Positions 5,598-26,439 of a stretch of DNA of 64,000 bases are shown piece by piece. The stretch's first letter is position 1. Each line of letters begins with the position of its first letter. The position numbers and the translations under genes were made by a program. The notes below the pieces were generated by a model, which saw nothing but the letters and a program-made list of their open reading frames with translations, was not told the DNA's origin and ran no database searches. This DNA is from Candidatus Obscuribacteraceae bacterium (GTDB lineage: Bacteria > Cyanobacteriota > Vampirovibrionia > Obscuribacterales > Obscuribacteraceae): positions 352,001 to 416,000 of the forward strand of contig JBGASG010000004.1 of NCBI GenBank assembly GCA_044229845.1. The letters run 5' to 3'.

Positions 5598-5716
5598 GCT
5601 GGTCACCTCCTGTCAGAGGTCAAGATTATATGGCTGTAGAGGTGCGCCAGCGGGCAAACTATAAGTGATTTTGCAATACAAACATATGCTAAACTGCATC
5701 CTTGAAAGCCAAGCCA

Positions 5717-8200
5717 ATGCCAGAAGAAAAGATAGTCGTTACCGTGATTGGCGCCGGCAAGATAGGTTTGCCCCTTGCTTGCCAATTTGCTGCGCGCGGC
5801 GCGCAGGTAATCGCTTGCGACGTGCGCAAAGACGTCGTGAAATCTATAAATCGCGGCCGGTCGCCAATTGAAGAGCCCGGCATCGCCGAGGTACTTAAGA
5901 AAGCTGTTGATGCCGGCCGCTTGTCGGCAACTAGTGATACACCAAAAGCGGTATCAGAAAGCGACGTCGTCGTGGTGGTTGTACCAATTCCTTTGACTGC
6001 CAGCAACGAAGCCGATATTTCGGTCGTGGAAGATGTGACAGCGTCTATCGCCAAAGGACTGAAAGCCGGCACGCTCGTTTCCTACGAAACAACCTTGCCT
6101 GTCGGCACCACGCGCAACCTGGCACGAATTCTCGAGACCACCGGGCTGGTCGCCGGCCAAGATTTCGACCTGGCGTTCTCGCCTGAACGCGTGAAGAGCA
6201 ACATGGTCATGCAACGACTGGCGGAACATCCGAAAGTCGTGGGCGGCGTCAACGACCGCTCCGCCGACCGGGCCGAAGAGTTTTACTCGAAGTACCTGGG
6301 CGCTCCGGTTATCAACGTAGATTCGCTGGAAGCAGCTGAATTCGTCAAGCTCGCCGGGGTCGCCTTCCGCGACGTCAACATCGCACTGGCAAATGAACTG
6401 GCTCGCTACGCCGACGCTATCGGGGTCGATGCCGAACTGATTATCAAAGCCGCCAATACCGATGGCGAGGCAGCCCTGCTGCGTCCAGGCATCGGCGTCG
6501 GCGGATATCGATCGCCTGTCTATCCGCACTTCCTGATTAATGATGCCGACAATCGCGGGATACCCTGCGAGTTGCCCGCCATCAGCCGCGCCATCAACGA
6601 CACGCAACCCAGCTACTTTTTGGACCGTGTGGAAGAAACCTGGAAAAGCCTCAAGGGACAGAGTGTCTTGATGCTGGGATTGGGTTTTAGGCCGCAGGTG
6701 AAGGACAGCTCCAATTCCCCGGCTTTCAAATTGCGCGACGAGCTGAAACGGCGCGGCGCGACGCCTTATGTACAGGATGCTCTCTATACCGACGAAGAAT
6801 TGCGCGAACAGGGATTTGCCACCTGGGAATCCAACTCGCTACCGCCCGTGGTGATTCTGGTCACGGCGCATGATGAGTTCAAACAGATGAAACCAGCCAA
6901 GCTGGCGGCACGCGGCTGCGAAGTATTGGTCGACGGACGCAATGCATTTTCCCATGCCGATGCCTGCAAGAGCGGCTTGATTTACATCGGAGTCGGGCGC
7001 AGCTACGGCATCGACGACAACAATGTCCACAACCGTCCTATTCCATTGACGCGGCCTCTGGTAGCATCGCGCGAGTCGGCCGCGGCTGTATCAGTGATCA
7101 GATCCGGCTCACTCGTGCAAGGTCCGCAAGTAGCCCTGTTAGAAAAAGAATTCAGCGACTACGTCGGCGCCGGCTATGCGTGTGCCGTTTCTTCCGGCAC
7201 GTCCGGTCTGCACCTGGCGCTGCTTTCCTGCGGCATCGGACCCGGCGATGAAGTGATCACGGTCAGCTACAGCGGTGTCGCGCCGGCCAACGCCATTCGT
7301 TATTGCGGCGCCATTCCGGTATTCATTGATGTGGAGCCCGATACGTTCAACATCAACACCGACCAGATCGAAGAGGCGATCACCGAGAAGACCAAAGCCA
7401 TACTGTGCGTACACCAGATGGGCATGCCCTGCGATCTGACCAAACTGCTCGCGCTGGCCCGGCGCAACAAACTGCGCGTCGTCGAAGGCGCCGCCGGCGC
7501 CACCGGCAGCGAGATTTTACTTTACCGTCAATGGCAGCGCATCGGGCGACCGCACGGCGATGTGGCTTGCTTCTCGTTTCACCCGCGCAACCTGGTCACC
7601 ACCGGCGATGGCGGCATGATCACCACCGAGAACGGGGATATCGATCGACTCTGCCGGCTCTGGCGGGATCACGGCACCAACGAACTCGGGCACCACGACT
7701 CGATGGGCTTCAATTACAGATTGACGGATGTATTGGGAGCAATCGGGCGCATACAACTGCAACGACTGCCGGCGCAGGTCGTTCGACGTCGCCAGCAAGC
7801 CGAGCGTTATCACGAATTGCTGCGCTGCATCGAAGGTGTCAACCTGCCGCGCGAGCCTGAATGGGCGCGCAGCAACTGGCAAAGCTACTGCATTACTTTC
7901 GCCAGCGAGCAGCTGCGCGATGCAGTCCAGGCGCATCTTACCGACTTGAAGGTCGAAACGCGTCCGGGCATCAGCTGTATTCACCGCGCCCCGGCCTACA
8001 CGCAGGAGTTGTGGCGGTGCGCCGGAGAGACGATCGAGTCATCAGCTGCGGCAGCGTCTAAACGCCTGAAACAAAGCGAACAATCTCAAGATCGCGGTTT
8101 GATCTTGCCGCTCTTCGATAATCTGTCCGATGCAGATATGCGACGGGTCGCCGACGCCATCGGCAGTGTGGTATCAAAACACGCTCTGGCCAAACTGTAA
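5717..8200 (+). CDS. Fusion of a UDP-glucose/GDP-mannose dehydrogenase-family domain and a DegT/DnrJ/EryC1/StrS aminotransferase-family domain; catalytic residues substituted in both
   Basis: GAGKIG, FSPERV, RDVNIALANE, LVDGRN; then AVSSGTSGLHLAL, IGPGDEVI, VHQMG, GFNYRLTD, LILPLF. Confidence 0.92.
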   Translation: MPEEKIVVTVIGAGKIGLPLACQFAARGAQVIACDVRKDVVKSINRGRSPIEEPGIAEVLKKAVDAGRLSATSDTPKAVSESDVVVVVVPIPLTASNEADISVVEDVTASIAKGLKAGTLVSYETTLPVGTTRNLARILETTGLVAGQDFDLAFSPERVKSNMVMQRLAEHPKVVGGVNDRSADRAEEFYSKYLGAPVINVDSLEAAEFVKLAGVAFRDVNIALANELARYADAIGVDAELIIKAANTDGEAALLRPGIGVGGYRSPVYPHFLINDADNRGIPCELPAISRAINDTQPSYFLDRVEETWKSLKGQSVLMLGLGFRPQVKDSSNSPAFKLRDELKRRGATPYVQDALYTDEELREQGFATWESNSLPPVVILVTAHDEFKQMKPAKLAARGCEVLVDGRNAFSHADACKSGLIYIGVGRSYGIDDNNVHNRPIPLTRPLVASRESAAAVSVIRSGSLVQGPQVALLEKEFSDYVGAGYACAVSSGTSGLHLALLSCGIGPGDEVITVSYSGVAPANAIRYCGAIPVFIDVEPDTFNINTDQIEEAITEKTKAILCVHQMGMPCDLTKLLALARRNKLRVVEGAAGATGSEILLYRQWQRIGRPHGDVACFSFHPRNLVTTGDGGMITTENGDIDRLCRLWRDHGTNELGHHDSMGFNYRLTDVLGAIGRIQLQRLPAQVVRRRQQAERYHELLRCIEGVNLPREPEWARSNWQSYCITFASEQLRDAVQAHLTDLKVETRPGISCIHRAPAYTQELWRCAGETIESSAAAASKRLKQSEQSQDRGLILPLFDNLSDADMRRVADAIGSVVSKHALAKL

Positions 8201-10267: not shown

Positions 10268-11724
10268 GACCGCTGAGACACCTGCACTTTGACGGGCAGC
10301 CGCACCGTGAACGTGGACCCCTTGCCGGGAGCCGAGTCTACTTCCACCACGCCGTGATGGCGGGCAATAATTTCGCGGGTAATCGCCAGCCCCAGTCCGG
10401 TACCGCCGCCGGTGCGCGTCCGCGCTTTGTCGGCGCGATAGAAACGCTCGAAGATGTGCGGCAAATCGGAGGGATCGATGCCCGGGCCGTTGTCTTGGAT
10501 GGTGACTTCGACGATGTCCGGCTCCAGCACTTTGGTGGCCACCGTGACGGTGCCACCACCAGGGGTGTAGTTGACGGCATTGGTTAATAGATTGACGAAA
10601 GCACGCTGCAACTGAATGCTCTTGCCGCTGACCATCAGCCCCTCGGCGGAGACGAGATCTTGAATGGCTGTGGATTTCTTCTGCGCCTGCGGGCGGATTT
10701 GATCCATCGCATCGTTGAGAATGTCGCTCAGCCTCACCTCTTCCTGCCAGTCTTGCGTGATGCCGGCATCAAGACGGGTGATGTCGAGCAAATCGCGCAG
10801 CAGGCTGGTCTGGCGGTCAACGAGATTTTCCAGCGAGTGCAGGAATTGTTTGCGCAAATCGGGATCTTCCGCGGCGCCGGCTTGTAGCGCTTCGACCACA
10901 GAGCCGATGGCCATGGTCGGCGTTTTCAGTTCGTGGCTGGCGTTGGCGATGAACTCCTGGCGCAGTCTTTCCTCTTCGCGCAAGCGTCCGATCATTTGAT
11001 TGAATGACAAACCCAGTTCGCTGATCTCATCCTGCCGGCGCACCGGCACGAATACCGAAATATCCCCGGACTTGGCAATCTGGCGCGCCATATCGCTCAT
11101 CTCGCGCAGCGGACGAGTCATTCTGCGCGCCACCCATATGCTGATCAAAGCAGTGGCTATCAAAGTAGCGAAGGTCAATTCAAGAAACACAATCAGGTCA
11201 CGATTGACACGCTGGTTGATGTCAGTCAGTGGTACCCCAACGCGAATTACGCCCCCGGTCTGCCCCGAAGAACGCACTGGATATGCCACATACAGCCACT
11301 CGGTCTTTTTCAGGTTGCGGCGATAGTTGGCGGCGATACCAGCCAACGCGTCTTGAATTTCCGGTTGATTGGAGATGTTCTCTCCTTCGCGCAGCGGCTT
11401 GTGTCCTGAGTCTGCGACAACTTTGCCGTTGCTGTTCACAACCGTGATTGCCAGATTGAGTTTGCTGGCATGCCGATAAACAGCGCGTCTGATGCGTTCG
11501 GTAGCCTGCTCGGAATCGAGCTGCATGTCATTGTCGATTTCAAGCGCTAAGTGCACCGCTTCGACTTCCAGACCGTTGCGCAGGTCTTTGATCGACTCGG
11601 CTTTGATGGTTACCAACGCCCAAACGGTAACGCAGGTGAGCGCAAAGGTGACTACTAACAAGTAGGTAACCAGCAGTTGGTTTGCCAGACTTCGTGATAG
11701 CCAGCGATATATCCGTTCGAACAA
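10264..11724 (-). CDS. Membrane sensor histidine kinase (HAMP, HisKA, HATPase)
   Basis: FIANASHELKTP H-box; NLLTNAVNY, DNGPGI, IFERFYR, GTGLGL. Confidence 0.95.
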   Translation of the reverse strand: MFERIYRWLSRSLANQLLVTYLLVVTFALTCVTVWALVTIKAESIKDLRNGLEVEAVHLALEIDNDMQLDSEQATERIRRAVYRHASKLNLAITVVNSNGKVVADSGHKPLREGENISNQPEIQDALAGIAANYRRNLKKTEWLYVAYPVRSSGQTGGVIRVGVPLTDINQRVNRDLIVFLELTFATLIATALISIWVARRMTRPLREMSDMARQIAKSGDISVFVPVRRQDEISELGLSFNQMIGRLREEERLRQEFIANASHELKTPTMAIGSVVEALQAGAAEDPDLRKQFLHSLENLVDRQTSLLRDLLDITRLDAGITQDWQEEVRLSDILNDAMDQIRPQAQKKSTAIQDLVSAEGLMVSGKSIQLQRAFVNLLTNAVNYTPGGGTVTVATKVLEPDIVEVTIQDNGPGIDPSDLPHIFERFYRADKARTRTGGGTGLGLAITREIIARHHGVVEVDSAPGKGSTFTVRLPVKVQVSQRS

Positions 11725-11934
11725 AATCCGCGCCCTGCTTGCAGTTCATGGCATCCTAACATGTCCAAATATAACAAGGAAGTCTGCAGCAGGCGGCGCA
11801 TTCGCCCGCTTGCAACGTGGATTAAACAAATTGGAGCTATAGTGTGATTAACTATGCCAAGGCGCATATAATGTGTTCCGCTGGGGCTCGCAACATGCAC
11901 ATGAGACCAGCAACCCGAAGGAGGTCCGCGTCAA

Positions 11935-12258
11935 ATGTCTAGTGTGGCAAACGTTACCGACGCAACGTTCGAGCAAGAGGTACTCAAGGCTGAGGTGCCG
12001 GTGCTCGTCGACTTCTGGGCTCCGTGGTGCGGTCCATGTAAAGCCGTCGCGCCAGTCGTCGAAGATCTTTCCAAAGAGTATGAAGGCCGCTTGAAGGTCG
12101 TAAAGCTCAACACCGATGAGAATCCGAAAACCGCCCAGGCTTACACGATTCGTGGTATCCCAAGTCTGTATCTCTTCAAGAGCGGTCAAGTCGTTGAGCA
12201 AGTCGTCGGCGCCGTGCCGAAGTCGACCCTGGCTAACGCCATCAACAAGCACCTTTAA
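11935..12258 (+). CDS. trxA: Thioredoxin
   Basis: [31 protein letters not shown]. Confidence 0.96.
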
Positions 12259-12285
12259 GCCGCGACTACCCGCCTGGGTTTCGTC

Positions 12286-12723
12286 ATGAAGCAAGTCCTG
12301 ATTGCAGCTGTCGCATGCCTGCTGATTGGCGGCTGTGGTGGCGACACGCCCACATCTACATCTGAGTCGACGTCTGCATCTACGCCCACATCTGAGTCCA
12401 CGAGCGGCGTCACCCATGTCACGGACGCCACCTTCGAACGCGAGGTGCTCAAGGCTGACGGTCCGGTGCTCGTCGATTTCTGGGCTCCGTGGTGCGGTCC
12501 CTGTCGAGCCATGGCGCCCACTGTCGAGGAGATCTCGCGGGACTATGCCGGTCGCGTCAAGGTCGTGAAGCTCAACACCGACGAGAATCCCCAGAGCGCC
12601 CAGAAATACCAGATTCGCGGCATTCCCAGCCTCTATCTATTCAAAGATGGTGAGGTCGTGGAGCAGGTCGTGGGAGCCGTGCCGAAGGCGACGCTGGCGG
12701 CGGTCCTGGACAAGCATCTATAA
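12286..12723 (+). CDS. Thioredoxin with predicted lipoprotein signal and S/T linker
   Basis: [17 protein letters not shown] lipobox-like; [19 protein letters not shown] linker; WCGPC. Confidence 0.9.
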
Positions 12724-12829
12724 GCCTACCCAGACACCGGGATTCCCCCGCTGTCCGCGCAGAGCAACCAGGATATACTGGGTGTTCAAAGGCTGATGCC
12801 TGCTCATAACCCTGGTTGGACTGCATCTT

Positions 12830-13348
12830 ATGAAAGAAGTATTGATCGCCTTTATCGTCGCCCTTGTGATTGGCGCTGCCATGAATGGATTGGGCATGTC
12901 CTTCTTTCTAGAGAAGCCGTCCACGCCGCCCCAGACAAGCTCTGCCAATCCAGCAGGATCCGATGACACAACCGGAGTCGTAACCGACGAATCCGATGAT
13001 TCGTCAGAGAGCTCATCCGGTCAGAATCATGTCAGCGAAACCGATCAGGACAAATTCGCATCGGAGGTGCTGCAGGCATCCAAACCAGTATTGGTGGACT
13101 TCTACGCCGATTGGTGTGGTCCCTGCAAGCAAATGTCGCCCGTCATTGAGAAACTTGCCAATCAGTACGATGGACGCCTGCAGGTCTACAAAGTAAACAT
13201 AGACAAGAACCCCAAGCTCGTTGCAAAGTACAACATCCAAAGCATCCCGACATTCATCATTTACAAGAATGGCGCCTCGGTGGAGAACTTTGCCGGCTCG
13301 ATGCCGCGGACAGAGCTGGCCGCCGCCATCGACAAGCACATCAACTAA
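12830..13348 (+). CDS. Thioredoxin with N-terminal membrane anchor
   Basis: Hydrophobic N-terminus, S/D-rich linker, FYADWCGPCK, IQSIPT. Confidence 0.9.
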   Translation: MKEVLIAFIVALVIGAAMNGLGMSFFLEKPSTPPQTSSANPAGSDDTTGVVTDESDDSSESSSGQNHVSETDQDKFASEVLQASKPVLVDFYADWCGPCKQMSPVIEKLANQYDGRLQVYKVNIDKNPKLVAKYNIQSIPTFIIYKNGASVENFAGSMPRTELAAAIDKHIN

Positions 13349-13483
13349 GTAGAAACTCGGCAGTATTTACCCTGTTTTCTTCACGGACTGTTTCCCAGTG
13401 CCGTGGAGTGATCCCAGTCGCTAAAATATCGTTTATTATTGAACAGGACAGGAAACGGGCGCCCCGGGACGCTTTTCGCCACA

Positions 13484-13759
13484 ATGAAGGACCTGCTCAT
13501 CACTCTAGGCTTAGGAATTGTGCTCAGCTGCGCGCTGGGCAGCTTGCTCTACTGGCTCAGCGGCACGAAGGAAGAAGAGAGCAACTTTGGTGTTGGCTGT
13601 GCAGGTGTCAGACCGGGCATTATGGGCGTCGACAAACGAGATTTCAAAATTCCGCCGATGAACGCCGCTGATGGTGCGGTTAATCATGGGTACGCCACTG
13701 ACGTTCTGTCAGGATCGGCGCCAACCAACGTCCGCTATCCAGTGAATGGCGTTTGGTAA
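13484..13759 (+). CDS. Small membrane-anchored hypothetical protein
   Basis: MKDLLITLGLGIVLSCALGSLLYW; co-oriented between trx3 and the FtsH-like gene. Confidence 0.6.
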   Translation: MKDLLITLGLGIVLSCALGSLLYWLSGTKEEESNFGVGCAGVRPGIMGVDKRDFKIPPMNAADGAVNHGYATDVLSGSAPTNVRYPVNGVW

Positions 13760-13808
13760 AGCAACACGCGGGGCCACGGTGCCCTAGAAACAGGAGCTCG
13801 AACGAAGC

Positions 13809-16800
13809 ATGTTAAAGAACTGGGCCAGATGGACTCTTCTCCTTTTGTGGATGGTGTTGCTGGTAGCGACCGTCACATTCTGGAACCCGTTCACTTCGCT
13901 GCCGGCGCTACTTAAGTTTTCGGTACTGCAGGTAGTGGCAGCCGTCATATTCGGCGGCTTCATGATCATGATGCAGTTCTACATCTTGATGGTAATCCTC
14001 TTCCCGATGCCGCAGCGTGCCGACGCAAAAGCACCGAAGAGCCTCGGGCTGAAAATATTTCCGTGGATGTTCAAGAAGACGCAGATCAATCCCAAGGCAC
14101 CGCAATTGCTCAAGGATTTGATCGGCAACGAACCTGCAAAGGTGGAAATCAAAGAAGTGATCGACATGATCGCGCATCCAGATCGATATGCCGCTTCTGG
14201 AGCTGAAGTGCCTAAGGGCATGCTCTTCATCGGACCACCCGGCGTTGGCAAAACTCTGTTTGCACGCGCCATTGCCAACGAAGTTGGAATTCCATTTTAT
14301 GTCGTCGAAGGGTCCAACCTGAGCGGCTTGTTTTTTGGCTTGGGCGTGATCAAGCTCAAGACCTTGTTTGGTCGATTGAAACGCCATAACAAAGCGATCT
14401 TGTTCATCGACGAAATTGATTCGATGGGCGCGAGACGCAGATCCGACTCGGGTATGGGCGCTCAGTCCGACATGAATATGACGCTGAATACATTGCTCAC
14501 CGAGATGGACGGCTTTGGTAGCTCTGCGAACCTTCTGGTGATCGGTGCCACCAATAACGATGCCATCTTAGACCCTGCTTTGATGCGTGCCGGTCGCATG
14601 GATAGGCGCATCTATTTCCAGACACCCTCTCCCGAAGAGCGTCAAGAACTGTTCAAGTATTACCTCAGTAAGGTGGTATACGACCGCAACATAGATCTGG
14701 TGGAGCTTTCCGATCTGACATCTGGTTTCTCGCATGCCGACATTGCCAATATCGTCAATGAAGCGGCTCTGATCAGTCAGCGTCCAAGCGGTCCCCAGCA
14801 AGTCACCACAGATACAGCTAAGCAAGCTCTGGACCGTGTCTCCGTGGGACTGGAACGCTCTTTGATCGGCTCGGGCGTCGAGTTGATCACAGGAGATCCA
14901 ACAGTCAAGTTAGCCGATGTAGTCGGCATCGACGACATCAAACCAGAAGTCACTGAGATTATCGACTTCTTGAGGCAAGGCGATCACTTGAGAAAAATAG
15001 GCGCCAAGCTTCCCAAAGGCGTCCTCCTAATCGGTCCTCCCGGTGTTGGCAAAACCATGTTAGCCAAGGCCATCGCTAACGAGGCTGGAGTGCCGTTCTA
15101 TGGATTGTCCGCGCCTTACATGCTCAGTATGTTTAAGGGTGAAGGTGCAGGCCGGATTCGAGCCCTCTACGCGCAAGCCAGAAAAAGTCCCGCTGCAATC
15201 ATTTTCATTGATGAAATCGACTCCATTGGCGGTGGCAGACAGGAAGTTCAGGGCATGGGCAACCAGCGCACCGAAGAACTCAATCAGATGCTTGTAGAAC
15301 TCGATGGCATAGGACGCAGCAACGTTATTACGATCGGTGCAACCAACCGCGAGCAAGAGCTGGATTCAGCATTTAGCCGCGCCGGACGCTTCGACCGAAA
15401 GGTGTACATCGGACTGCCAGACTCCGAGTCTCGCAAGAAAATTCTCCAGAGCTACTTGAAGAAGATCAAGATTGCGGCGGAGCCCGATCTCGACAAACTT
15501 TCCAAGGACACAGTGAACTTCTCTGGAGCAGACATCGCTGCCGCAGTGAATGAAGCGGCGATACTAGCTGTTCGAGAGAAAAAGGACCACGTTGAAGAAA
15601 AGCATCTTGAGGAGGCTGTGGAAAAAATCTCAGTCACAGCCGGCAACAAGATGAACACAAGCGGCATCAACCTGGCCCGGGTTCCAGATATCGATGTGAA
15701 GCTCGAGCACATCAAAGGTATGGATGAGGCAAAGGCCGAAGCAGCTGAAGTTGTGGCCTTGCTGAAGAACGCTCATCTTGTCCAGCAGAGCGGGCTAAAG
15801 GCTCCCAAAGGAATCCTGCTGGTGGGTCCGCCCGGAACGGGCAAAACTATGCTAGCCAAGGCGATTGCCAACGAGGCTGGTGTGCCATTTTACGCCCTGA
15901 CGGGCAGTGACTTTGTTCAGGTGTGGGTCGGCTTGGGAGCCCAGCGAATTCGTGCTGTGTATGAGCAAGCGCGGCGCAGCGGCAAACCCGCGATTGTATT
16001 CATCGACGAAATAGATGCTCTCGGTCACGCTCGTGGGATCGACCAGGGTGCTGGCGGGAAACAAGAGCACAACCAGACCCTCAATCAGTTTCTCACCGAA
16101 CTTGATGGATTCGGAAAGCACAAAGTGCTCACCATTGGTGCCACAAACAACCCGCAGCTCCTCGACCGCGCTTTGCTGCGACCAGGTAGATTCGACCGAC
16201 GTATCGAGGTACCGCTTCCCAATATGGAAGGTCGCGAAGCAATTTTGCAGCACTATCTCGGAAAGCTAAAGATGTCGGCTGGCGTTAATCTTCTGGAAAT
16301 CGCTCGCATGACGGTATTTCAGTCTGGCGCAGATCTGGCAAATATTGCCAACGAAGCTGGACTGATTGCGATTCGGGAAGGAAGGCTCGACATCAACCAG
16401 AGGGATCTCATCGAAGCAATTCAGCGGGTCAACTTCGGCATTTCACGCAGCCAAAACATCGTCCTCGAAGAACTGTGGGCAACGGCCTATCACGAAGCTG
16501 GACACGCTATGGTTTCGTACTTTAGAGACAAGCGCACCCGGATACAGATCATCACTATCGTCCCGACCGGCAGGGCGCTGGGTTATATGTGGCACGTCGA
16601 TAAGGACGATCTGTTCCACCACTCGCCCAACAAGCACGAGCTGCTAGTCGACATGGAAATATCGCTCGGCGGTTATGCAGCTGAAAACCTGCATCAAGAA
16701 ACAACCACAGCTGGAGTGAGCAGCGACTTGACTAACGTCGGGCGCATCGCACGCCAGATGGTCCGCGAGTGGGGTATGGGCTCCTTCAAGTTCAACGTTG

Positions 16801-17288
16801 ATCATGCGTTTTCGGATGAATTTAACTATGGTGCCAGCGGACAGGGAATTGGAATCTCAGACCAAACAGCACGGGAACTGGAGCTTGAAATGAAACAGCT
16901 GGTGGACGGCTGTTTGAAAAACGTCGAACAGCTTTTGAGAGCTAAGCGCAAGGAACTCGATCAGATCGCTCATGCTCTCGTGGAGAAGGAAACACTCTTC
17001 TACCGCGACCTGGTGGCGATCCTGGAACCGCATCGCAGCGACTCGGACGTGGAGCACGAAATCGCAACTCTCGCAGAACGCAAATTGGTGGGCAAGAAAC
17101 GCGAGATCAGCTTTGATCTGGTGAAAGGCCTTGGATTGGTCAGTGGAGGCGGAAGCAGCTCTCCCGCTGGCAAGCCGACCAGTTCGCCGGGTGCAGATTC
17201 CGGCGGGCTTGGCACCGTAGGTGGTGAAGGTGGTCCGCTGGGTTCACCGGAGAATAATCGCGATGCGGGTCCCGAAGGCGATCACTAG
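13809..17288 (+). CDS. FtsH-like membrane zinc protease with three tandem AAA+ domains and an M41 peptidase domain
   Basis: Two N-terminal TMs; Walker A at 14232, 15033 and 15825; three FIDEID Walker B motifs; three SRH motifs; AYHEAGH at 16491. Confidence 0.93.
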   Translation: MLKNWARWTLLLLWMVLLVATVTFWNPFTSLPALLKFSVLQVVAAVIFGGFMIMMQFYILMVILFPMPQRADAKAPKSLGLKIFPWMFKKTQINPKAPQLLKDLIGNEPAKVEIKEVIDMIAHPDRYAASGAEVPKGMLFIGPPGVGKTLFARAIANEVGIPFYVVEGSNLSGLFFGLGVIKLKTLFGRLKRHNKAILFIDEIDSMGARRRSDSGMGAQSDMNMTLNTLLTEMDGFGSSANLLVIGATNNDAILDPALMRAGRMDRRIYFQTPSPEERQELFKYYLSKVVYDRNIDLVELSDLTSGFSHADIANIVNEAALISQRPSGPQQVTTDTAKQALDRVSVGLERSLIGSGVELITGDPTVKLADVVGIDDIKPEVTEIIDFLRQGDHLRKIGAKLPKGVLLIGPPGVGKTMLAKAIANEAGVPFYGLSAPYMLSMFKGEGAGRIRALYAQARKSPAAIIFIDEIDSIGGGRQEVQGMGNQRTEELNQMLVELDGIGRSNVITIGATNREQELDSAFSRAGRFDRKVYIGLPDSESRKKILQSYLKKIKIAAEPDLDKLSKDTVNFSGADIAAAVNEAAILAVREKKDHVEEKHLEEAVEKISVTAGNKMNTSGINLARVPDIDVKLEHIKGMDEAKAEAAEVVALLKNAHLVQQSGLKAPKGILLVGPPGTGKTMLAKAIANEAGVPFYALTGSDFVQVWVGLGAQRIRAVYEQARRSGKPAIVFIDEIDALGHARGIDQGAGGKQEHNQTLNQFLTELDGFGKHKVLTIGATNNPQLLDRALLRPGRFDRRIEVPLPNMEGREAILQHYLGKLKMSAGVNLLEIARMTVFQSGADLANIANEAGLIAIREGRLDINQRDLIEAIQRVNFGISRSQNIVLEELWATAYHEAGHAMVSYFRDKRTRIQIITIVPTGRALGYMWHVDKDDLFHHSPNKHELLVDMEISLGGYAAENLHQETTTAGVSSDLTNVGRIARQMVREWGMGSFKFNVDHAFSDEFNYGASGQGIGISDQTARELELEMKQLVDGCLKNVEQLLRAKRKELDQIAHALVEKETLFYRDLVAILEPHRSDSDVEHEIATLAERKLVGKKREISFDLVKGLGLVSGGGSSSPAGKPTSSPGADSGGLGTVGGEGGPLGSPENNRDAGPEGDH

Positions 17289-17320
17289 GCAGCACAAGCA
17301 AGGATTGCCCATCAAGCGAT

Positions 17321-18358
17321 CTATGGGTTAAACGCAAACAAGAACGTCATCAGAAAATTGAAGGTGACGTGACAGATGAGCGTTGTCGTCGTGTTCGTGT
17401 AGCGACGCAGGATACCCATTAGCGTCGACCAACCGGCAACCTGAAGAATCAAGATTGGTGCGTGCTGGAATTGCGCGTGCAAGATACCGTGCATGATGGC
17501 GGCTGGAAGGATGCCCAGGGCGGGTTGGACCGCACCACGCATCAGGACTTCTTCGCCCACTCCTGCGCATAGGGCAGTCGACAAAGCTAAAAGCGCTGAC
17601 GGGGCGGCACCACCCCCGGTATCAAAGGCACCGAGATTGTAGTTGGTCAATTTGCCCTCCATACCACCCTGCAATGAATGTGTATAAAGCGACCAAGCAT
17701 AGTCGTAGGCGAAGGTTCCGATAACTGCCAACAAAGCCACTCCGATCTGCCATCCTTGAGGCTTCTCCAGCCCCAGGCGCGCCAACGCCTGTTGAGGGTT
17801 GCGTGTGACCATGATGCCGATGCCGCACGCTGCCAGTCCGATCAAAGCGATGCCGTTGTAGACGAGAAGCTGATCAGGAGTCACTGGAATCGGCAGGGGA
17901 AAGCTGGGAATGCCGAAATCCTGCGCTTCAGTACCCGCCAGCATGTAGCAGAAGACGCAGACATAGACCCAGAGCGAGTACATGTGGGGTATGGATTCTT
18001 TGACGAAAATCCGCTCGGCGAGGAGGGATTCCACGGCACTTTTCTTCTGCTTCAAGGCGACAAAAACTCGTCCGCCTATTATTTGGTTGGCGACCGTAAG
18101 GACATAGGAAACAGCTTCACGGAAGGGCTTAAACAATACGACAAAGCTGAGAGCAGTAGCAGTAATCAGCATTGCCTGTTGCCAGGCCGTGTAAGTCGAT
18201 TCCTTTTCAGACCCGATTGAGACCGCCGTCACGGCGCAACCAAAGGTACATACGCCGATGGTGACCCGGATAATCCACTCAAAAACCTTGCTGCGATAGG
18301 ATCCATGAGCAATCAGGGCAAATATGCAGCAGATGAAGATGGCGACCAGTTCGTCCAA
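17321..18358 (-). CDS. CPBP (Rce1/CAAX-like) intramembrane glutamic protease
   Basis: GEEVLMRG, HGILH, HVTFN motifs in a polytopic protein. Confidence 0.88.
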   Translation of the reverse strand: MDELVAIFICCIFALIAHGSYRSKVFEWIIRVTIGVCTFGCAVTAVSIGSEKESTYTAWQQAMLITATALSFVVLFKPFREAVSYVLTVANQIIGGRVFVALKQKKSAVESLLAERIFVKESIPHMYSLWVYVCVFCYMLAGTEAQDFGIPSFPLPIPVTPDQLLVYNGIALIGLAACGIGIMVTRNPQQALARLGLEKPQGWQIGVALLAVIGTFAYDYAWSLYTHSLQGGMEGKLTNYNLGAFDTGGGAAPSALLALSTALCAGVGEEVLMRGAVQPALGILPAAIMHGILHAQFQHAPILILQVAGWSTLMGILRRYTNTTTTLICHVTFNFLMTFLFAFNP

Positions 18359-24632: not shown

Positions 24633-25235
24633 ATGAAAAAGCTTTCCCAAGTCGGCCTTCTGGTAGCTGTCTCGCTGTGTCTGACCGTGCCCGCGGCGCG
24701 CGCAGACTGGGACGATTTCGTGAACACGCCCACTATTTCGGGTGAAGCTAGCATCGATGGCAGCGGCAATGTCAGCGGTTCCGTCAGTGCGGAATTCGGC
24801 AGCGGCTCCGGTGCCACAGCCGGATTCGGCAACGGTTCGGGCAGCGGCGGCGGTGGTGGCGGCGGCGGCGGTGGCGTCGGACAGGCTGCCACCGGGGATG
24901 GTGCTAACACAACCGACACCAGCGGACAGGGCACCGACAACCAGTACGTCCATCTCAACGACTATGGGCAGCAGTTGATCGAAGCGCCGGCTCGCAACAA
25001 GAGCAACTACACGTCGCAAAATCAGTATCAACAACTGACCGAGGGCAACGAGACCAGCACCGAGCTGATGGCCCCCGAATCGGTTTCGGGCAGACCGATC
25101 CCATCTGGCTCATTCAAACTCGGCTTCCCGGGTCGCACCGGCGGCGTCGCGCCGACCAACATGAATCCGTGGCAGGGAACTATTGCTCCACCTTGCAGCA
25201 CCACTTCGTGCGATTTCAACGTCGTCGATCTCTAA
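24633..25235 (+). CDS. Secreted Gly-rich hypothetical protein (paralog 1)
   Basis: Signal peptide ending ARA; poly-Gly; AATGDGANTT, ETSTELMAPESVS. Confidence 0.85.
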   Translation: MKKLSQVGLLVAVSLCLTVPAARADWDDFVNTPTISGEASIDGSGNVSGSVSAEFGSGSGATAGFGNGSGSGGGGGGGGGGVGQAATGDGANTTDTSGQGTDNQYVHLNDYGQQLIEAPARNKSNYTSQNQYQQLTEGNETSTELMAPESVSGRPIPSGSFKLGFPGRTGGVAPTNMNPWQGTIAPPCSTTSCDFNVVDL

Positions 25236-25849
25236 TGAAGAAATCCGTTCTCACTTCCGCTTCGCTGATTGCCTTCGTTCTGTGCACGCCGCTAGTGAAG
25301 GCGCAGAATGCCGGCACCGCCGCGACGGGTGATGGCGCCAACACCACACAAACTACGTTTCAGAACAACGGCGCCACGCAAGTGAAGCACGACAACAGCG
25401 CCTTCGACCGGTCTCAACCACTGGGCACCGGACAGGGCGTCGGCAAGGACACGAAGTCGACAAAAACAAAAGACTATCTGGAAAATTCTGAGAATGGAGG
25501 ACTGCCTGAGACTTCTACTAAATTGATGGCTCCAGATTCGGTCAGCCCGAAGCCAATCGGCAGACAGGCTCAGACTCTCGGCTTTCAGAAAGGCATCGAC
25601 GAAGAGTACAAAGGCCCATATCAAACGTCCGGTGCATCCGGCGGCACGCTGCCGTACACGTCGACGGGCGCAGTGGATATCGATATCATCGGCGGCGGCT
25701 CCAGTGGCGGCGGCGTTGATGGCGTTCCGGACGGCGTTCCGGCTTCGCAATGGAAATCCAATAAATCTCAATGGGGCTCATATCAAAACGATGATGCAGC
25801 GCCGACCTACGGATTGGAGGATTCATACGGTTTCATCGGTGACGATTGA
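25235..25849 (+). CDS. Secreted hypothetical protein (paralog 2)
   Basis: TAATG coupling; signal peptide; AATGDGANTT, ETSTKLMAPDSVS. Confidence 0.85.
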   Translation: MKKSVLTSASLIAFVLCTPLVKAQNAGTAATGDGANTTQTTFQNNGATQVKHDNSAFDRSQPLGTGQGVGKDTKSTKTKDYLENSENGGLPETSTKLMAPDSVSPKPIGRQAQTLGFQKGIDEEYKGPYQTSGASGGTLPYTSTGAVDIDIIGGGSSGGGVDGVPDGVPASQWKSNKSQWGSYQNDDAAPTYGLEDSYGFIGDD

Positions 25850-25866
25850 TCAGTCAGAGGATTCGC

Positions 25867-26439
25867 ATGATGTTCAAAAAATTACTAGTAGTTATGGCTG
25901 TCAGCCTGGCAATGGCACCGGCTTGCTACGCCCAGGGTGATGTGAACGGCTGGGCCGACACCGGCGACCAGGGCATTCAGCACGACACCGGTCCGACACC
26001 GGGCAATCTCAACAACATAAATGAGAACCCCGATGCCGACAAAACGCGTACCGGCGGTGATGGAGATGCTCGCGTCGGCGGTTACGGTGAAAACAACGGC
26101 ATCGATATCAAGCCGCTCGATCTGCCCGGTCAGGCCAGCAATGGCGGTCCGGACGGCGGGGTCGGTTCAGGCGCGGCAACCGGCATGCCGATTCTCGGGA
26201 CTTTCGTTGCTCCCAACAACCTGGCTTTGAGAAACAACGGCTGGCGTCGCCTGCCGGAAACACGCCTGGACAGTTTCGTCAAAGAATCCGGCTACAACGA
26301 CATGATCTATGGTGATGAAGGGACCGACGGCCCGCCGCCGTATGACGACTTCCTATATATTAATGACGGTATCACCTCCGGCGGTCTGACCACCGGACAC
26401 CCAAGCGATGCGCCGTCTGCCTGGGGCTGGCCCAACTAG
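25867..26439 (+). CDS. Secreted Gly/Asp/Asn-rich hypothetical protein
   Basis: GAGG RBS; signal peptide; ADTGDQG, LPETRLDSFV, YGDEG, GLTTGH. Confidence 0.85.
   Translation: MMFKKLLVVMAVSLAMAPACYAQGDVNGWADTGDQGIQHDTGPTPGNLNNINENPDADKTRTGGDGDARVGGYGENNGIDIKPLDLPGQASNGGPDGGVGSGAATGMPILGTFVAPNNLALRNNGWRRLPETRLDSFVKESGYNDMIYGDEGTDGPPPYDDFLYINDGITSGGLTTGHPSDAPSAWGWPN

Follow-up and report, generated by a model that had tools for sequence, protein, structure and literature searches.

An FtsH-type protease with three AAA modules in one chain, conserved across Obscuribacterales and probably assembled as stacked ATPase rings

How is an AAA protease built when a single chain carries three motors and only one protease domain? 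The question is raised by a gene at positions 13809..17288 of a 64,000-nucleotide stretch of DNA from Candidatus Obscuribacteraceae bacterium (GenBank assembly GCA_044229845.1, contig JBGASG010000004.1, positions 352,001 to 416,000), the whole of which we call the window. An initial annotation, made from the sequence alone, described the product as an FtsH with three tandem AAA modules, and placed two architectures side by side: a three-tier unfoldase ring feeding the protease, or a dimer closing one pseudo-hexameric AAA ring with two protease sites. We report that this triple-AAA FtsH is a real, conserved, single-copy gene throughout the order, and that it probably forms a hexamer in which three stacked ATPase rings stand over one M41 protease ring, each chain carrying three motors. 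Between the two architectures the three-tier ring is therefore the one we favour and the dimer the one we disfavour.

The matches listed for the protein (P0001) comprise 120 full-length homologue clusters at 64-100% identity, its own cluster included; residue conservation was scored over P0001 and 119 of these 120 matches, the window's own cluster being omitted (n = 120). The parts of the gene are as follows.

13809..17288, + strand: open reading frame of the triple-AAA FtsH (P0001), 1159 aa in a single open frame
13818..13883, + strand: transmembrane helix 1, aa ~4-25
13923..14000, + strand: transmembrane helix 2, aa ~39-64
14001..14102, + strand: family-specific linker from membrane to motor, aa 65-98; F65-G106 distance the same in 120/120
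14103..14849, + strand: AAA module 1, aa 99-347
14850..14900, + strand: linker between modules 1 and 2, of near-constant length (33-35 between anchors)
14901..15638, + strand: AAA module 2, aa 365-610
15639..15692, + strand: linker between modules 2 and 3, 35 residues between anchors in 120/120
15693..16439, + strand: AAA module 3, aa 629-877
16470..17033, + strand: M41 zinc protease domain, aa 888-1075
17049..17285, + strand: poorly conserved C-terminal tail rich in Gly, Ser and Pro (mean conservation 0.30)

The layout read from the letters alone holds throughout. Hydropathy and the helices of an AlphaFold model both place the two N-terminal transmembrane segments as listed; the Walker A motifs start at residues 142, 409 and 673, which reproduces the reported spacing of 801 and 792 nt; Walker B, the Arg-finger motifs of the second region of homology (SRH) and the three pore-loop sequences are all present; and a single M41 domain carries HEAGH (895-899), the GG..AE motif and Asp973. 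The Pfam scan proposed at that time returned AAA three times, AAA_lid_3 three times and Peptidase_M41 once (PF01434, E 4e-42). TIGR01241 (FtsH) matches P0001 in three stretches, summing to 1057 bits against a cut-off of 600, and TIGR01243 scores 739.6 bits, under its cut-off of 802.65. The loop between the transmembrane helices is only ~13 residues long, with the W25-G49 distance the same in 120/120, and hence there is no periplasmic domain; FtsH_ext was absent among the 25 best Pfam matches.

A chimera was named at the outset as a finding that would overturn the description. We consider the possibility of an assembly chimera or a recent, unstable duplication. A specific marker (P0001 residues 1-119) matches 99 of 107 genomes of two Obscuribacterales families, with one gene per genome, and none of 294 genomes from the class's remaining families. 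Where close homologues carry a name, it is mostly Obscuribacterales. An artefact could be read into the frameshifts that interrupt the gene in 6 of the 99 genomes (G006, G010, G051, G106, G002, G313), but 87 of the 99 hold one open frame of at least 1022 aa from the N-terminus and 6 more run to contig ends. We rejected a reading of the six as split genes, as the breaks lie inside domains at differing places and look like sequencing indels. Among four DNA runs (4 studies), the whole gene lies on single unchanged contigs in three and on two overlapping contigs in the fourth; these runs may be the source of the window's DNA, so the spanning contigs are not fully independent. A collapsed or duplicated assembly is also contradicted by the divergence of the modules, which are only 42-48% identical pairwise. 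RNA-library contigs (4 runs, 3 studies) include segments of each of the three modules and of the upstream genes, with DNA carry-over uncontrolled. A record titled Actinobacteria (L028) was considered as a transfer and set aside: it is the same contig as in a genome of the window's own family (G008) and is probably mislabelled.

Two trees were built on the separate modules, one by IQ-TREE and one by a faster method, both rooted on CDC48. As the initial annotation had envisaged, they trace the history of the repeat: modules 1, 2 and 3 each form their own strongly supported clade across both families, and the triplication is therefore older than the radiation of the order. Together with the spanning contigs and the order-wide conservation, this leaves the artefact with a negligible probability. 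The host genome also keeps two ordinary single-AAA FtsHs, and in both trees the modules of the triple family stand apart from these and group instead with the multi-module FtsHs P0122, P0123, P0127 and P0133 (support 95-97). P0122 may be a distant orthologue: the IQ-TREE phylogeny puts its first module with module 1 and its third with module 3 (support 91 and 90), although the faster tree places the first one otherwise. A query with P0122 against 300 other genomes of the phylum, two candidates being scored per genome, gave no match at E 1e-125. Two further ATPases of the order were seen along the way. One genome that has the triple form also encodes an FtsH that combines two AAA modules with a single M41 domain (L021, 2391-5735, + strand, G024:C35), 35% identical to P0001 and with modules outside the triple-family groups. 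Another Obscuribacterales genome holds a CDC48/VAT-type two-module ATPase (L022, G014:C49), for which the window's genome gave no match.

The triple family is not isolated among proteins with several AAA modules. In a set of the best 150 representatives at 50% identity, of which 149 were classified beside the family's own and which is not a census, 32 have two full modules with M41, 6 have three and 1 has four (P0123); 2 have two complete AAA-M41 units, and there are also chains without M41 that hold from three to six modules. Among the three-module clusters, one carries the name Thermoleophilaceae. In the trees, modules from P0124, P0126/P0134, P0143, P0153 and others cluster by protein or by lineage, which points to repeated and independent duplication. 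Across 40 other multi-AAA M41 proteins, 39 of the 40 last modules have an intact catalytic set, against 38 of the 48 earlier ones (Fisher p 0.01; the rows are not independent, and one miss is an alignment gap). Separately, we observed large chains, most of them bearing transmembrane segments, that contain five or six AAA modules of the classic type but lack M41 (P0130, P0136, P0137, P0151, P0155, P0156, P0157, P0208, P0225), one of these clusters being named Marinobacter; six modules in one chain could make a single-chain ring or three double tiers. In P0128 and P0129 two complete AAA-M41 units share a chain, and the first M41 of P0129 lacks HExxH.

Are all three motors of P0001 likely to work? 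The Walker A Lys, the Walker B Asp, the sensor-1 Asn and the two Arg fingers show no substitution in any of the modules (120/120), and the Walker B Glu is kept in 120/120 in modules 1 and 3 and in 119/120 in module 2 (E469). The invariant positions include K148, D201/E202, N249, R260/R263 and the intersubunit signalling (ISS) residue F236 in module 1, and K415, N513 and R524/R527 in module 2; the M41 zinc site (H895, E896, H899, D973) is likewise kept in 120/120. The substrate-facing loops were said to differ between modules. Their sequences do differ, but there is more to it than difference, as a fixed aromatic loop is found only in module 3. In YME1, substrate is gripped by the aromatic residue of the pore loop, and neighbouring subunits are coupled through the ISS Phe (10.1101/189316). 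Measured against the FtsH pattern for pore loop 1 (aromatic-hydrophobic-Gly), module 3 has Trp706 in 119/120, together with an ISS Phe in 119/120 and a pore loop 2 of fixed length. Module 2 is aromatic at this position in 83/120 (by pattern match) and has the loop shortened in ~20, with a pore loop 2 mostly 5 residues shorter and an ISS Phe in just 17/120. Module 1 begins the loop with Ile (87), Phe (32) or Val (1), followed by Met, Phe, Tyr or Leu, and its pore loop 2 is fixed in length. Pairing ISS residues with acceptor pockets was tried and gave no discrimination, the acceptor Phe being invariant in all modules. In three of the 120 (P0077, P0086, P0095) the module 2 pore loops are module-3-like, with 70-80% local identity to the protein's own module 3, which suggests gene conversion between modules.

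These patterns could also be read as a hexamer whose one working ring on the protease is that of module 3, with modules 1 and 2 making up loose or transient tiers and serving as spacer, substrate holder or nucleotide-gated regulator. The variable pore loops of module 2 and the absence of its ISS Phe in 103/120 would fit such a division, as would the lack of an aromatic at either pore-loop position of module 1 in 52/120 and the fact that the distal modules are those decaying in other lineages. The catalytic residues speak otherwise: modules 1 and 2 retain the Arg fingers, which act in trans, the Walker B Glu and the sensor-1 residue in 119-120 of 120 sequences. Conservation of module 1 also matches that of module 3 (115 of 251 positions conserved at 95% or more, against 117 of 246). 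This argues for closed and hydrolysing interfaces, and we regard a ring of module 3 alone as unlikely. For the stack favoured here, tiers with unequal pore loops have a parallel in p97, where aromatic pore residues occur in D2 only (PMC5543420).

The arrangement of the tiers was approached through predicted structures. In the AlphaFold model of residues 1-1100 (predicted local distance difference test score, pLDDT, 76.7; predicted template modelling score, pTM, 0.55), residues 361-876 (modules 2 and 3) superpose on single p97, Cdc48 and Rix7 chains over ~470-498 residues at a root-mean-square deviation (rmsd) of 3.4-5.2 Å, and residues 631-1079 (module 3 and M41) on FtsH and Yme1 over 420-430 residues at 3.2 Å. 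A separate model of modules 1 and 2 (pLDDT 83.1, pTM 0.63) matches a p97 protomer with a query TM-score of 0.78 (rmsd 3.8 Å over 540 columns) and Cdc48 8uaa_E at 3.4 Å over 486 residues. The models therefore predict head-to-tail stacking at both junctions, like p97 D1 over D2, and module 3 is predicted to pack on the protease as in FtsH. Each of the 60 best PDB sequence matches shown spans two modules at most. The linker between modules 2 and 3 aligns with the membrane-to-AAA linker of canonical FtsH, and hence the repeat unit is linker plus module; each repeat would then enter at the membrane face and leave at the protease face, so that fusion from head to tail would stack the modules. A two-copy complex prediction of residues 103-602 scored 0.00 and bears neither way on the oligomer.

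The same chain could instead dimerize into one pseudo-hexameric AAA ring (1-2-3-1'-2'-3') with just two protease domains. Three divides six, covalently linked AAA rings exist, as in dynein, heteromeric rings of unequal subunits exist as well, and six-AAA single chains without M41 are among the matches (P0136, P0137). The linkers, moreover, are fixed in length and 7-8 residues longer than in a CDC48 homologue. Yet both junctions are modelled as stacked, and the M41 domain is complete, while two copies of it cannot make the six-fold protease disk. There are also relatives whose linkers have just 13 residues (P0124) or that carry four modules (P0123), and the fixed Trp pore loop would occupy just two of six positions. 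The four modules of P0123, a number that does not divide six, favour a stack, and so does the tolerance of a stack for a dead tier, which in a mixed ring would also disable its neighbour. Since the junctions are modelled as stacked, the M41 domain is kept whole, a four-module relative exists and decay falls on the membrane-side modules, we consider the dimeric ring improbable.

In the stacked hexamer, modules 1, 2 and 3 would form three rings, lying between the membrane and a six-site M41 ring and offering as many as 18 ATP sites. Module 1 would be the entry ring, whose conserved bulky hydrophobic pore loop may grip hydrophobic segments at the membrane; module 2 would be a relay or spacer that hydrolyses ATP with a weak grip; and module 3 would feed the protease through its fixed Trp pore loop and ISS Phe. 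The likely job of such a machine would be to extract and degrade membrane or membrane-anchored proteins that are hard to unfold, as a specialist beside the two ordinary FtsHs. Several points weigh against the stack and its details. The proposed division of labour among modules is read from conservation patterns; model confidence is low in the linkers (pTM 0.55 for the full model, 0.63 for modules 1 and 2), and AlphaFold may reproduce the p97 arrangement from its training. Between the same anchors the linkers measure 21 and 22 residues against 14 in the CDC48 homologue, and this additional length gives room for other packings; in p97 the linker has a function of its own (PMC4730245). Furthermore, the four-module P0123 is one sequence cluster, and Arg fingers intact in every module fit a mixed ring equally well.

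How does this protein compare with known systems? To our knowledge, protein-threading AAA machines have one or two rings. In ClpAP and ClpCP, double AAA rings feed a protease chamber, so that more than one AAA ring serves a protease there too; these have two rings, however, belong to another AAA clade, and are soluble, with a separate serine protease. Canonical FtsH, YME1 and AFG3L2 (MEROPS M41, TIGR01241; PDB 3kds, 6az0, 7wi4, 7zbh) share with P0001 the two N-terminal transmembrane helices, an FtsH-type AAA with SRH and ISS, and a C-terminal M41 with HExxH and Asp, and the canonical FtsHs of the order are 40-42% identical to it over module 3 and M41. They differ in having one AAA module rather than three and, in the prototypical form set out in the accessible part of PMC10850787, a periplasmic domain between the transmembrane segments. 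The triple-AAA protein is thus an FtsH variant: it has the transmembrane, AAA and M41 features of the family and departs from it in module number and in the missing periplasmic domain. With p97/Cdc48/VAT, NVL/Rix7 and Drg1 it shares tandem classic AAA modules, unequal pore loops between tiers and, in the predicted models, the D1-over-D2 geometry. Unlike these type II proteins, it has three tiers, a membrane anchor and a fused protease, lacks an N domain, and its modules are FtsH-derived, with CDC48 D1 and D2 falling outside them in the trees.

Among the nearest published forms are the FtsH ternary conflict systems with MoxR and vWA, which place two FtsH AAA domains, the first inactive, in one bacterial chain (Kaur et al. 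2020, PMC7159879, in part). The part of that paper covering them (section 21) describes no protease or transmembrane segment and a conflict operon with MoxR/vWA genes, whereas here three active copies are joined to M41 and the conserved neighbours are thioredoxins and a small transmembrane gene. The chloroplast Orf2971/Ycf2-FtsHi import motor is also FtsH-derived and membrane-bound, with two AAA domains in some green algae (PMC9421593). It suggests another use for the chain, in which the main task would be pulling, either to translocate proteins or to take complexes apart at the membrane, with proteolysis secondary; the missing periplasmic domain and the extra motor capacity agree with this. 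According to the same source, however, Orf2971-type proteins have lost M41 and have a very long N-terminus within a heteromeric complex (PMC9421593), and the zinc site of the FtsHi/Ycf2 pseudo-proteases is lost or degenerate. In P0001 the protease is intact, its zinc ligands and catalytic Glu standing at 120/120, and a primarily pulling role is accordingly very improbable.

The architecture is atypical, as first claimed, with three modules per M41, and prior characterization, the other finding that could have undone the claim, did not come to light: we found no description of a three-AAA FtsH in the papers searched, subscription journals and supplements lying outside their scope, so the protein is apparently undescribed. 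A survey of 6,028 FtsH sequences reportedly made by Shao et al. in 2018 could mention multi-AAA forms. The FtsH review PMC9020784 gave no text match for tandem, two AAA, multiple AAA or Melainabacteria, and the available part of PMC8047818 describes the canonical form only.

The gene ends a same-strand cluster headed by trxA and faces a convergent gene.

11935..12258, + strand: cytoplasmic TrxA-like thioredoxin, first gene of the cluster
12286..12723, + strand: second thioredoxin, with an N-terminal hydrophobic leader
12830..13348, + strand: signal-anchored thioredoxin-like protein; all 23 orthologous loci examined have a gene of thioredoxin fold upstream
13484..13759, + strand: small protein with a single transmembrane segment, 91 aa, directly before the FtsH gene
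17321-18358, - strand: Rce1-like intramembrane protease of the CAAX family, convergent, 33 nt from the FtsH stop

In 21 of 23 loci examined, a similar gene for a single-transmembrane protein of 75-105 aa precedes the FtsH start by 7-99 nt; ten members gave no Pfam match (best E 0.27). The small protein of the window and the thioredoxin-like protein upstream of it have similar N-terminal anchors; the CxxC of the latter is often degenerate in relatives. In relatives a fasciclin-like gene, so labelled from reading translations, joins the cluster at the place of the second thioredoxin. The Rce1-like gene is downstream in just 7 of 25 orthologous loci, most of them with 1.5 kb flanks. The cluster genes may be co-transcribed with the FtsH, and their products may be its physical partners; gene order suggests a possible link to thiol redox control. 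A scan of 11600-17500 for sigma-70 promoters and terminators was at or below chance (2 vs 4.1, 5 vs 5.5). Elsewhere in the window, translations show an 832-aa open reading frame resembling a nucleotide-sugar dehydrogenase fused to a DegT-type aminotransferase (5702-8200, + strand), and three tandem secreted-looking low-complexity proteins of ~200 aa each with short motifs in common (24633-26439, + strand).

A fuller picture, which we put forward tentatively and as possible rather than probable, is that of a three-storey, 18-site unfoldase in which an entry ring with a hydrophobic grip would pull proteins from the bilayer, a relay ring would shield them, and a Trp-loop ring would feed the fused zinc protease. 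A dedicated single-transmembrane partner would replace the periplasmic domain, and membrane-anchored thioredoxins would join. A single bacterial chain would then amount to a dislocation machine of the p97-plus-protease kind, and FtsH motors in general would be extendable storey by storey, to 2, 3 or 4 modules, in several separate gains.

FtsH is considered weak as an unfoldase, and a triple motor kept in single copy by nearly the whole order thus points to a demanding class of substrates. The natural series of FtsHs, with one to four modules before the same protease, makes the contribution of an extra ring testable, be it to force, grip, processivity or channel length, and also lets the coordination between rings be tested. 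For the Obscuribacterales, the triple-AAA FtsH is an order-level marker that has been hidden by the automated labels 'AAA family ATPase' or 'FtsH'.

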